From contig OY771555.1 in assembly GCA_963674785.1 (NCBI GenBank), positions 144,851-208,850 on the forward strand: a DNA stretch of 64,000 bases, given 5' to 3'. Positions within the stretch are counted from its first letter, which is position 1. Each line of letters starts with the position of its first letter. Shown one piece after another: positions 38,602 through 40,668 of this stretch. A model generated the notes under the pieces. It saw only the letters and a program-made list of their open reading frames with translations. It was not told where the DNA came from and did no database searches. The position numbers and the translations under genes are program-made. This DNA comes from Caldisericia bacterium. GTDB lineage: Bacteria; Caldisericota; Caldisericia; JAAYUI01.

Positions 38602-38626
38602 AAAAAAAGCCTCTATTACTAGAGGC
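38602..38626 (-). terminator. Rho-independent terminator downstream of 16S rRNA
   Basis: Minus-strand GCCUCUAGUAAUAGAGGC hairpin followed by UUUUUUU, about 120 nt 3' of the 16S end; next gene starts about 190 nt further on. Confidence 0.55.
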
Positions 38627-38746
38627 AAATCTTTGTGTAATAGTAAGAAAACTAGATAGCAATGTTCCAAAAAAAGTCAACGGGTCATCCGGTGAATTAA
38701 ATCTTTTTTTGTTGTCTTGATATTTCTACCAAGAAAAGCTCCTTAG

Positions 38747-40280
38747 AAAGGAGGTGATCCAGGCGCTCGTTCTCGAACACCTGCCTTGTTACGACTTCAC
38801 CCTCCTTACCGAGCACACCTTCGGCAGCCCCCTCCTTGCGGTCAGGGTATCCGACTTCGGGTGCACACGACTCGGGTGGTGTGACGGGCGGTGTGTACAA
38901 TCCCCGGGAACGTATTCAACGCAGTATAGCTGACCTGCGTTTACTAGCAACTCCATCTTCACGAGGTCGAATTTCAGCCCTCGATCTGTACTGGGGCAGA
39001 GTTTAAGGATTAGCTCAAGGTTACCCTATCGCGGCCTGCTGTCTCTACCATTGTCGCATGTGTGCGGCCCTGGACATAAGGGACGTGAGGATTTGACGTC
39101 ATCTCCATCTTCCTCTAGCTTGTCGCTAGCGGTCTCATTAGAGTGCTCAGCCGAACTGGTGGCAACTAATGACAGAGGTTGCGCTCGTTTAAGGACTTAA
39201 CCTTACATCTCACGACACGAGCTGACGACAACCATGCACCACCTGTGAATCTGTTCTAGTAAACTAGAAGGGCCCAAGTTTCCAAGGGCTTTCAAAAACA
39301 TGTCAAGTCCAGGTAAGGTTCTTCGTGTTGCATCGAATTAAGCCACATGCCTCGCTGCTTGTGCGGGGACCCGTCAATTCCTTTGAGTTTCAAACTTGCG
39401 ATCGTACTTCCCAGGCGGAATACTTAACGCGTTAGCTACGGCGGTGAGTGCGGTGTAGCACCCACTATCTAGTATTCATCGTTTACAGCTAGGACTACCA
39501 GGGTATCTAATCCTGTTTGCTCCCCTAGCTTTCGTCCCTGAGTGTCAGGTATAGGCTCGGAAGCCGCCTACGCCACGGGTGTTCCTCCTGATATCTACGG
39601 ATTTTACCTCTCCACCAGGAATTCCACTTCCGTCTCCTATCCTCTATCCTGCCAGTATTAGATGCAGCCGCAAGGTTGAGCCTTGCGATTTAACATCTAA
39701 CTTAACAGGACACCTGCGGACCCTTTACGCCCAGTGATTCCGGATAACGCTCGCTCCCTACGTATTACCGCAGCTGCTGGCACGTAGTTAGCTGGAGCTT
39801 ATTCATCTGGTACCGTCAAACATATTGCTATGCATTCTTCCCAAATAAAAGAGCTTTACGACCCGAAGGCCTTCGTCGCTCACGCGGTGTCGCTCGGTCA
39901 GGCTTTCGCCCATTGCCGAATATTCCCGACTGCTGCCTCCCGTAGGAGTCTGGGCCGTGTCTCAGTCCCAATGTGGCTGACCGTCCTCTCAGACCAGCTA
40001 CCCGTCGTAGTCTTGGTGAGCCATTACCTCACCAACTAACTGATAGGGGATAAGTCCGTCCAAAAGCGATTTGCATCTTTCTTCTCAATTATTAAAAAAG
40101 AGACATTATTGGGTATTACCCGGCATTTCTGCCGTATATCCCCATCTTAAGGGTAGGTTACCTATCTTGTACTCACCCGTTTGCCACTAATTCACAGGGC
40201 AAGCCCTGCTTCATCGTTCGACTTGCATGTATAAGGCACACCGCCAGCGTTCATCCTGAGCCAGGATCAAACTCTTCGAG
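38747..40280 (-). rRNA. rrs: 16S ribosomal RNA
   Basis: Reverse complement begins AGAGTTTGATCCTGGCTCAG and ends GGATCACCTCCTT; contains GGATTAGATACCCTGGTAGTCC and TGTACACACCGCCCGTCACACCA. No 23S or tRNA within 300 nt of either end. Confidence 0.95.
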
Positions 40281-40668
40281 CATCTTATATATGTATTATA
40301 TATAAAGTGTTATATTAAATAACTAGGTGCTCTCACACCTATATTGTCATTCTGGAATTGCACCGGATATTGACTTTCATGTGTTAATTGCTATCTAGTT
40401 TTCAAACTACTACATTTCCCAGAAGTGAATCGAGGAAAGTTCAGTTTACCACAAAAGGTGACCACCGTCAAGCAGTTACCCTTTCGGCCAACGAGTAATG
40501 AAATATAACCCAAAAAGTTATAGAGTCAAGGAATGGATATAACATGAATAATATATTGCATTCATGGGACTTTCTTGAGAATCAAATTCAATAATCGAAA
40601 GGTTCCTTTAACCATCATTCGAAAGATTTTCACCAAAACGCTTCACATTCAACGATTAAATCGAATCC

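Follow-up and report, generated by a model that had tools for sequence, protein, structure and literature searches.

A stand-alone 16S rRNA gene in an uncultured relative of Caldisericum

The rrn operons of Escherichia coli carry tandem P1 and P2 promoters, a boxA element in the leader and an RNase III stem around the 16S rRNA, control elements that were reportedly set out by Berg, Squires and Squires in 1989. These elements are also treated in PMC7665894 and PMC6614797. Stand-alone 16S genes have likewise been described and are widespread, with examples in Thermus, Dehalococcoidia, Planctomycetes, Rickettsiales and Helicobacter; unlinked rRNA genes are known in 37 of 71 phyla, and mixed genomes make up 0.62% of complete genomes (Brewer et al., bioRxiv 10.1101/705046). 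The same work discusses the idea that unlinking goes together with the loss of RNase III processing, and the string "Caldi" has no match in its main text. Literature searches on Caldiserica and Cryosericota found no paper on the layout of the rRNA operon in this group.

The 16S gene described here lies in a 64-kb stretch of DNA, which was analysed at its full length and is referred to as the window. It is very probably a single functional gene that forms an independent transcription unit unlinked from 23S and 5S, with base changes that were inherited and a link that was lost once. The region is thus real but ordinary, namely a working-looking 16S gene of an uncultured Caldisericum relative, transcribed alone.

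The 16S gene, its neighbours and its relatives

The gene matches the Rfam model RF00177 with a score of 1492.6 bits over model positions 1–1533, without truncation (gathering score 50), which compares with 1463–1580 bits in its relatives. The functional core was checked at the 530 loop (G529/G530), the 1400/1492-93 decoding region, helix 45 (A1518/A1519) and the anti-Shine-Dalgarno CCUCC, and direct reading finds it intact, with GCGGUAA, GUACACACCGCCCGUCACACC, an AGAA loop with both adenosines, and GGAUCACCUCCUUUCU. What the initial annotation had read from the sequence holds throughout, with the clarification that the gene lies on the minus strand; the limits of its range, 38602 and 40471, coincide with the last base of the terminator T-tract and with the -35 box of P2 (Table 1).

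Table 1. Features of the 16S transcription unit and the adjoining genes, in window coordinates
Feature	Position	Strand	Basis
feoA-feoB-feoC, upstream, divergent	40669–43615	+	Pfam FeoA, FeoB_N, Gate, FeoC
Distal promoter-like site P1, TTGACT-16 nt-TATATT	40502–40529	-	Consensus scan, 10/12 matches
Proximal promoter-like site P2, TTGACG-17 nt-TGG-TAAACT, extended -10	40443–40471	-	Consensus scan
Processing stem, 5' strand (UGUAGUAGUUUGAAAACUAGAUAGCAAU), with boxA-like UUGAAAACU	40387–40414	-	Inverted repeat
Small conserved leader hairpin UAGGUGUGAGAGCACCUA, just 5' of the mature 16S end	40324–40341	-	Scan
16S rRNA gene, full length	38747–40282	-	Rfam RF00177 match
530-loop region with A505 and U526 (CCAGCUAACUACGUGCCAGCAGCUGCGGUAA)	39765–39795	-	Direct reading, E. 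coli numbering
Helix 45 (CAGGUGUUCG-AGAA-CGAGCGCCUG)	38757–38780	-	10/10 pairs kept
Small trailer hairpin, directly 3' of 16S (UCUUGGUAGAAAUAUCAAGA)	38704–38725	-	Alignment with relatives
Processing stem, 3' strand (AUUGCUAUCUAGUUUUCUUACUAUUACA)	38636–38663	-	Inverted repeat, covariation
Intrinsic terminator-like hairpin, 7 bp, G+C-rich (GCCUCUA-GUAA-UAGAGGC) + U7	38602–38626	-	Scan, folding
Formate/nitrite transporter (FocA/NirC family), separate gene, next downstream	37578–38411	-	Pfam PF01226, E = 2e-81

Compared with loci that were picked by two sequence patterns, rather than with a full reference database, the gene is 96.2% identical to that of the MAG L009 and 94.9% identical to that of L054, a Caldisericales-labelled MAG, while identity drops to about 79% for Caldisericum and Caldisericaceae and does not exceed 73% for other phyla. 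Simple neighbour-joining (NJ) trees on p-distances place it within the Caldisericota/Cryosericota group, from which its nearest 16S relatives also come. Affinities to CPR, Chlamydiae and Firmicutes, which the sequence and the Cu_amine_oxidN1 proteins had suggested at first sight, were rejected when the 16S comparison led to Caldisericota.

A 16S gene followed by neither 23S nor spacer tRNA had been claimed from the outset, and this is borne out well beyond its immediate surroundings: no LSU, 5S or spacer tRNA gene was found in the whole 64-kb window, no LSU match lies in the 38.7 kb downstream or the 23.7 kb upstream of the 16S, and the sole tRNA is a tRNA-Val (21134–21209, plus strand) 17.5 kb away. 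The gene is accordingly unlinked by the definition of Brewer et al., who use the absence of 23S within 1500 bp downstream, and the 23S would be located elsewhere in the genome. There is also no rnc among the annotated genes of the window. The protein gene that was expected after the terminator is the focA-type transporter, and a gene of the same type occupies the same position in L009, with 81% amino-acid identity. On the other side, feoA likely starts at the ATG at 40729, after AGGAGG. FeoA and FeoB are also encoded upstream, in divergent orientation, in L054, L162, L161 and L142, and in L131 only a FeoA match was found. No FeoA or FeoB was detected near the linked operons of relatives within the DNA examined, and the idea that feoAB would stand beside such operons, which would mean that it was the 23S that moved away from an unmoved 16S, was not borne out within that DNA.

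The arrangement is shared by close relatives. Those with at least 85% 16S identity have no downstream 23S and form one clade in the NJ tree (bootstrap 100/100), hereafter the unlinked clade. No 23S was found on any of the 12 other loci of this clade, seven of which have at least 1.3 kb of downstream DNA; L131, L151, L152, L161, L174, L009 and L054 have none within 1.3–5.5 kb downstream, and these seven share flanks and neighbours across independent assemblies. In relatives with at most 82% identity, Caldisericales included, 16S and 23S are linked wherever there is enough downstream DNA to judge, and the 23S lies 110–700 nt downstream. The linkage of these relatives fixes the polarity, which suggests a single origin of the unlinking. 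L154, a metagenome contig of 1,676 nt, joins an unlinked-clade 16S to a linked-lineage spacer and has only 133 nt of DNA past the 16S; it is read as an assembly chimera, and it could also be a second, linked copy.

Predicted transcription and processing signals

The two promoter-like sites are conserved in all 8 unlinked-clade leaders, P1 by an invariant TTGAC -35 box within varying surroundings and P2 by its TTGAC box together with the TG..TA -10 region. The sequence of the leader hairpin is the same in the window, L009, L054, L139 and L162. In the alignment, the trailer hairpin corresponds to UCUCUGUAGAAAUACAGAGA in L009 and to UCUCUGCAGGAAUGCAGAGA in L054, and its stem has been kept through two-sided changes.

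Around the 16S, the leader forms an inverted repeat with positions 38636–38680 that extends over 45 nt, is 78% complementary and has a perfect core of 17 bp; in 8 relatives, the leader/trailer stem folds at -31 to -41 kcal/mol. Across the loci, 90.7% of the cells of the 26-bp stem are paired and 11 of the 26 pairs have changed on both sides, a degree of covariation that was reached by none of 500 shuffles, and slid controls are only 34–56% paired. The leader/trailer duplex is therefore maintained by covariation, and an RNase III-type enzyme would be its processor.

The 5' strand of this stem contains a boxA-like motif, YYTTGAAAACT, that is invariant in the unlinked clade. A ACCTTGAAAACT-type motif is found both in the leader and in the 16S-23S spacer of linked relatives wherever both can be read, with the variant ACCTTGAAAATT in the L013 spacer, and the window has the motif in the leader only. 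The element is probably a NusB/NusE antitermination site, an assignment made because of this leader/spacer layout and of a likeness to Gram-positive and mycobacterial boxA sequences. A literature search that combined TTTGAAAACT with boxA found nothing relevant, and boxA is reported to diverge between phyla (PMC7665894).

The hairpin and U-tract that the initial annotation had placed about 120 nt past the 16S, and from which it had proposed that the 16S stands alone and is terminated separately, were recovered as GCCUCUAGUAAUAGAGGC followed by U7, beginning 121 nt past the 3' end. The fold has an energy of -15.8 kcal/mol (z = -4.3) that was equalled by none of 200 shuffles. All 10 unlinked-clade loci with enough trailer have a hairpin with T6-7 where the window has its own, and the stem has six different sequences over these 11 loci, i.e. 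the position of the terminator is conserved while its stem sequence changes. From the sequence we infer that P1 and P2 are used as promoters and that the hairpin terminates efficiently.

Taken together, transcription would begin at the two tandem sigma-70-type promoters, the boxA-like element in the leader would probably serve antitermination through NusB/NusE, leader and trailer would pair into the 26-bp stem that brackets the 16S, a structure from which pre-16S is usually released by an RNase III-type enzyme, and the intrinsic terminator, 10–25 nt past the stem, would end the transcript before focA.

These signals also bear on the possibility that the gene is an orphan extra copy, possibly specialised or decaying, beside a canonical 16S-23S-5S operon in a mixed genome. 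Such genomes exist, the rest of this genome lies outside the 64-kb view and L154 can be read as the linked copy, but the gene is full length, scores like its relatives and has all tested helices compensated, and a clade that reaches down to 85% 16S identity has kept the promoter-like sites, the stem and the terminator. Furthermore, a 23S was found on none of the 12 other loci, with L154 and its 133 nt as a possible exception, and contigs run through the 16S into unique sequence on either side, which would be unlikely given a second near-identical copy with other flanks and suggests a single copy, since repeated rRNA genes normally break short-read assemblies. An orphan copy or a pseudogene is thus unlikely, and a single 16S gene transcribed alone is the preferred reading.

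Compensated base changes in the 530 loop and helix 45

In E. coli numbering, obtained by alignment to rrsH, the 530-loop RNA reads ...CUCCAGCUAACUACGUGCCAGCAGCUGCGGUAA..., and the unusual U that the initial annotation had reported, with its pseudoknot partner changed in step, proves to be an A505-U526 pair in place of G505-C526. The 3' end reads AAGGCAGGUGUUCGAGAACGAGCGCCUGGAUCACCUCC, and the helix 45 loop is AGAA, not GGAA. Compared with the canonical form, helix 45 has three double and two one-sided changes, all of which preserve pairing, and over 10 variants it is 99% paired with five pairs changed on both sides, a covariation score matched by 0 of 500 shuffles. The altered 3'-terminal helix is therefore real and compensated, and so are the changes as a whole, with pairs kept throughout.

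The rarity that had been implied for these variants did not hold, as they are common in known clades. A scan of GTDB species genomes finds A505-U526 in at least 119 of them, and by genome label these include at least 80 Poribacteria, 21 Planctomycetota, 5 Caldisericota, 3 Armatimonadota, 3 haemoplasmas and 2 Patescibacteria, among others; the A-U pair has arisen or persists in at least six unrelated phyla. Among 49 Caldisericota-type metagenome 16S genes, chosen on another part of the molecule than 505/526, the pair is A-U in 47, G-U in one and G-C in one, and the interconversion of the three within the group points to structural neutrality. Position 508 is variable among the 530 loops of the group. 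The helix 45 version is common to all five Caldisericales genomes seen, two further pair changes apart (U-G to C-G at 1506:1529 and A-U to U-A at 1513:1522). The gene thus bears the rRNA signatures of the group, A505-U526 and the helix 45 form GGUGU.CG-AGAA-CG.GCGCC. In addition, the gene departs at 31 positions from a base on which all 7 outgroups agree; many of these lie in known pairs, and many are also changed in Caldisericales. In Chlamydia, G505 may be kept, which would give a G-U wobble with U526. U526 is documented for Chlamydia in a primer note (PMC7677004), and a literature search for the variant 530 loop yielded nothing beyond a paper on vaginal-microbiome primers and Chlamydia.

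A functionally altered ribosome, for example with changed 530-loop decoding or changed KsgA/RsmJ modification at helix 45, is a quite improbable explanation of these bases. Positions 505/526 do sit in the decoding-centre pseudoknot, and position 1516, a methylated G in E. coli, is an A here, but every change retains pairing, G530, A1518/A1519, the 1400 region and the anti-Shine-Dalgarno are unaltered, and the same A-U pair recurs in the unrelated phyla and interconverts with G-U and G-C as described above. As judged from sequence, the odd bases are neutral, compensated lineage signatures with no special function, and they leave knowledge of ribosome structure as it is. A505-U526, the helix 45 stem with its AGAA loop and roughly twelve more paired changes would go back to the common ancestor of the group, which is of phylum level, and a few compensated substitutions would have been added within the unlinked sub-clade, preserving the canonical structure.

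The mismatches to 515F and 1492R that had been predicted were confirmed in silico, and their effect is modest: 515F has a single internal mismatch to the 16S (position 12 of 19), and the four of 1492R all fall within its 5' five bases. The primers 27F, 341F, 806R, 926R and 1391R match perfectly in silico. In silico matching of 515F/519R with zero mismatches allowed misses the lineage.

Origin of the arrangement and comparison with known systems

A mis-joined 16S, or a 23S lost by collapse or chimera in assembly or binning, is hardly credible as the source of this layout. Metagenome assemblies do often go wrong at rRNA genes, and the related short contig L154 looks chimeric at the 16S 3' end, but several projects have independently assembled the same layout (L009, L054, L131, L142, L161 and L162), in which leader, stem and terminator are homologous, as are the neighbours, feoAB upstream and focA downstream; leader and trailer co-vary across loci, and composition is uniform over the 38.7-kb and 23.7-kb flanks.

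A genuine unlinking is thus preferred, in which a single loss of the 16S-23S link would have preceded the diversification of a clade of family or order rank (at least 85% 16S identity), and the 16S would have stayed beside feoAB. It is fairly likely, though short of firm, that this is the first documented unlinking in the Caldisericota group, and that it represents one loss in the ancestor of a clade common in metagenomes of the anaerobic-digester and sediment type, with a terminator in place of the spacer, a boxA-like element and stem under selection, a break exactly 3' of the 16S processing stem, and many sister lineages that are still linked. If true, this would offer a clean natural comparison of linked and unlinked lineages for asking why rRNA operons became split in free-living bacteria, as well as a counter-example to the association of unlinking with loss of RNase III processing; the retained processing and antitermination signals would be useful for testing why unlinking happens. 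The list of split rRNA operons would gain one more free-living anaerobic lineage, with its polarity defined by linked sisters. In practice, the lineage is beyond recovery by 16S-ITS-23S long-amplicon methods, and in binning its 16S cannot be assigned to a 23S by adjacency.

The locus resembles the unlinked systems of Brewer et al. in a 16S-23S gap far greater than 1500 bp, in its conservation within a clade and in belonging to an apparently free-living environmental lineage. It does not fit the proposed association with RNase III loss, however, as the leader/trailer stem and the boxA-like element are retained and co-vary.

The 530 loop has the same GCUGCGG reading as that of Chlamydia, Poribacteria and Planctomycetota, which mismatches 515F and 519R-type primers, and as in Poribacteria position 505 has changed along with 526, so that the pair is a Watson-Crick A-U.

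Further parallels are found in the Caldisericales operons (L013, L098, L035, L086 and L042), which share about 79% 16S identity, A505-U526, the lack of a spacer tRNA and a helix 45 of the type UAGGUGUACG-AGAA-CGUGCGCCUG, and which have the boxA-like ACCTTGAAAACT in both loci with a readable leader (L042 and L086). They differ in that the 23S follows 110–150 nt after the 16S, the spacer carries the boxA-like motif a second time where the window has a terminator, and a 5S lies past the 23S where the fetched DNA reaches that far (L013 and L098).

Finally, the tandem promoter-like sites, the boxA-like motif in the leader and the long leader/trailer duplex enclosing the 16S are all reminiscent of E. 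coli rrn. The motif itself is different (UUUGAAAACU compared with UGCUCUUUAACAA in E. coli) and forms part of the stem's 5' strand, and whereas the E. coli transcript continues into tRNA and 23S, that of the window would end right past the 16S stem.

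The 16S locus and its surroundings

The gene under study is a complete bacterial SSU rRNA gene (1492.6 bits, model positions 1–1533, Rfam). Rfam searches found no LSU or 5S match in the whole 64-kb window, and the 38.7 kb downstream and 23.7 kb upstream of the gene are therefore free of any 23S; the only tRNA of the window is a tRNA-Val. The initial annotation had described a stand-alone 16S gene with its own terminator and a protein gene behind it; this organisation was confirmed, the protein being a formate/nitrite transporter, and all quoted sequence strings are present in the RNA-sense strand. 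Ordinary chromosomal genes lie nearby, encoding V-type ATPase subunit I, a membrane pyrophosphatase, phosphofructokinase, a Ser/Thr kinase, ABC transport and surface proteins. The mechanically called feoA ORF starts from TTG 40669, but ATG 40729, preceded by AAGGAGG, is the likelier start and leaves a divergent promoter region of ~200 nt common to the distal promoter-like site (P1) of the 16S unit.

Features of the window (coordinates are window-based)
Feature	Position	Strand	Remark
Three ORFs	211-2118	-	same strand as subunit I
V-type ATPase subunit I	2122-4122	-	
ORFs	11339-12850, 12921-14402, 16635-18080		no NCBIfam match; near beta-propeller genes
PQQ/BamB-like beta-propeller repeat proteins, large	14441-16684; 48789-50336	+; -	
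tRNA-Val	21134-21209		
Membrane-bound Na+/H+-pyrophosphatase adjoining phosphofructokinase	21244-24274	+	
PF07833 proteins	36797-37450; 45971-48784; 55572-57278	+; +; -	
Formate/nitrite transporter		-	next gene on 16S strand
Hairpin GCCUCUA-GUAA-UAGAGGC + U7	38626-38602	-	121 nt beyond 16S 3' end
Inverted repeat, 45 nt	38636-38680 and 40370-40414		flanks 16S
16S rRNA	38747-40282	-	
P2 (proximal), TTGACG-17-TAAACT	40471-40443	-	promoter-like, extended -10
P1 (distal), TTGACT-16-TATATT	40529-40502	-	promoter-like
feoA-feoB-feoC			upstream of 16S, divergent

Two further protein groups occur in the window. The PF07833 (copper amine oxidase N-terminal-like) domain, which is typical of Firmicutes-type cell-surface proteins, is found in three proteins; in one it is joined to an M1 peptidase domain, in another to glucodextranase-B and Ig-like domains. 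The other group comprises the two beta-propeller proteins. The ATPase, pyrophosphatase and phosphofructokinase genes look like the energy-metabolism set of an anaerobe, which agrees with an origin in digesters and sediments, inferred by us from how the metagenome contigs of related loci are named.

Linkage of 16S and 23S genes among relatives

Relatives were sampled by two pattern-based scans. The first, for the A505/U526 pattern in one genome per GTDB species, gave at least 119 loci, so that its frequencies are lower bounds; the second set consists of 58 metagenome loci chosen solely by their helix 45 sequence, 49 of which include the 530 region. With the window 16S as BLAST query against the first set, the closest sequences among the matches listed belong to two MAGs, L009 (96.2% identity) and L054, an "uncultured Caldisericales bacterium" (94.9%), followed by five Caldisericum, Caldisericaceae or Caldiserica genomes at 78–80%; the remaining matches listed reach at most 73%. 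These identities place the organism in the Caldisericota/Cryosericota group, far from cultured Caldisericum.

In all five Caldisericales genomes compared, a 23S gene follows the 16S after a 110–150 nt spacer in which Rfam detected no tRNA, and a 5S gene is present where the fetched DNA extends to it. Similarly, every metagenome locus of the 58 that is at most 82% identical to the window and has enough downstream DNA carries a 23S at 180–700 nt, and none of the near-full-length 16S genes at least 85% identical does. Rfam found nothing after the 16S in L009 (1.9 kb downstream) or L054 (5.5 kb), the metagenome loci L131, L151 and L161 lack a 23S in 1.3–2.8 kb, and two fragment loci with the clade's trailer (L152 and L174) have none within 2.9–4.1 kb. 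The 23S-less sequences form one clade in a neighbour-joining tree (bootstrap 100/100). Among linked loci, L121 and L178 have long A+T-rich 16S-23S spacers (~430–700 nt) with short tandem repeats such as CACAAACTAAAG.

By synteny, focA follows the terminator in L009, and feoA-feoB lies upstream and divergent in L054 and the metagenome loci L162, L161 and L142 (feoA is upstream in L131); neither was found next to any linked operon in the DNA available. Compared with the window (38581-38421), L009 (2180-3021) holds ~680 nt extra between the 16S terminator and focA. An assembly artefact is excluded, because the same layout recurs in independent assemblies and the two flanks have co-evolved. The comparison indicates a genuine stand-alone layout that is old and specific to one clade, and the polarity and single origin of unlinking appear clear, since many sister lineages are linked.

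The one exception is the 1676-nt contig L154 (Ga0079099_1538526). Its 16S is 100% identical to that of L161 of the unlinked clade, and its 133-nt tail, which matches the 16S-23S spacer of the linked lineage L130, could alternatively mark a second, linked copy; the contig is probably a chimera, fused during assembly at the 16S 3' end, where the two sequences are identical. We infer that the 16S gene is most likely single-copy, because several contigs traverse it into unique DNA on both sides.

Base changes in the 530 loop and helix 45

Numbered against E. coli rrsH, the 530 loop has U in place of C526 and A in place of G505, and the pseudoknot 505–507/524–526 gains an A-U pair for G-C. The pair occurs in at least 119 genomes, including at least 80 Poribacteria, 21 Planctomycetota and 5 Caldisericota as labelled (at least 7 with L009 and the Caldisericales genome L013 added by 16S similarity), together with at least 3 Armatimonadota, 3 haemotropic Mycoplasma, 2 Patescibacteria, 1 Chromatiales-labelled contig and 2 further MAGs. 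It is also present in 47 of the 49 metagenome loci with the 530 region (G-C in one, G-U in one), and U526 has been noted in Chlamydia by a primer study (PMC7677004). The 505/526 pair drifts among isosteric states, as structural constraint would predict. L128, from the Caldisericota-type radiation, is a revertant with the canonical G505-C526 and additionally has the reading GGUAAAAC, and L177 shows a G-U intermediate; at position 508 of the GCUAAC segment, loci L121–L178 have C in 27 and A in 5.

The 3'-terminal helix of the window's 16S is helix 45, which reads CAGGUGUUCG-AGAA-CGAGCGCCUG, with all ten pairs intact and an AGAA rather than GGAA loop. Compared with the five Caldisericales (UAGGUGUACG-AGAA-CGUGCGCCUG), the window's clade has added U-G to C-G at 1506:1529, and the window and L009 further show A-U to U-A at 1513:1522. 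Across ten variants, 99% of cells are paired and five pairs have changed on both sides; loop base A1516 is also present in nine Planctomycetota loci. Furthermore, 31 window positions differ although invariant in seven diverse outgroups, many of them in known pairs (588/651, 666/740, 941/1342, 943/1340, 1509/1526, 1513/1522) and many common to Caldisericales. The initial reading of these changes as genuine and compensated, like its account of the organisation, holds, but their rarity at near-universal positions was overstated; they are real, not special, and fit a deep, structurally intact lineage.

The predicted primer mismatches were also found, with modest consequences. Both 515F and 519R have one internal mismatch, 1492R has four, all in its 5' five bases, and 1100R has two, whereas 27F, 341F, 805/806R, 926R and 1391R have none.

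The transcription unit and known unlinked rRNA genes

Both TTGAC boxes of the promoter-like sites are unchanged in eight leaders, while the sequence between them varies. The inverted repeat has a perfect 17-bp core, and matching leader and trailer segments from seven distinct relatives each fold into a two-part stem of ~26 bp (-31 to -41 kcal/mol). In the alignment 90.7% of cells are paired and 11 of 26 pairs show both-sided changes, values reached by 0 of 500 shuffles; sliding the partner strand along the stem lowers pairing to 34–56%. This covariation suggests a stem of the classical kind that releases pre-16S.

The 5' strand of the stem contains UUGAAAACU, invariant across the clade, which we take to resemble known boxA sequences. 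The ACCTTGAAAACT-type motif has two copies in linked relatives, in the leader and the 16S-23S spacer, and occurs in the leader only in the window's clade, a distribution that corresponds to the boxA layout of rrn operons and marks it as a putative boxA. BoxA sequences have diverged from phylum to phylum (PMC7665894).

The predicted terminator hairpin has a folding energy of -15.8 kcal/mol (z = -4.3). In all clade members whose trailer is long enough, a G+C-rich hairpin with T6-7 begins 10–25 nt past the stem's 3' strand, and six different stem sequences occur among the window and ten such loci. The terminator is the most telling element, as its form and position are kept and its sequence is not. 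Both the processing stem and the boxA-like element appear to have been kept under evident selection.

Overall, this unlinked 16S gene of a little-studied Caldisericota lineage is functional and ordinary, and joins a class already well described. Of 71 phyla, 37 contain unlinked rRNA genes, as do up to 41% of soil taxa, and such genes have been tied to slow growth and less frequent RNase III (Brewer et al., bioRxiv 10.1101/705046), in a survey whose main text does not mention Caldiserica. The case is mildly informative for its clear polarity and single origin and its retained stem and boxA-like element: whereas RNase III is rarer with unlinking in that survey, the window's clade has kept its processing stem, which suggests that unlinking was not accompanied here by loss of duplex-based processing.
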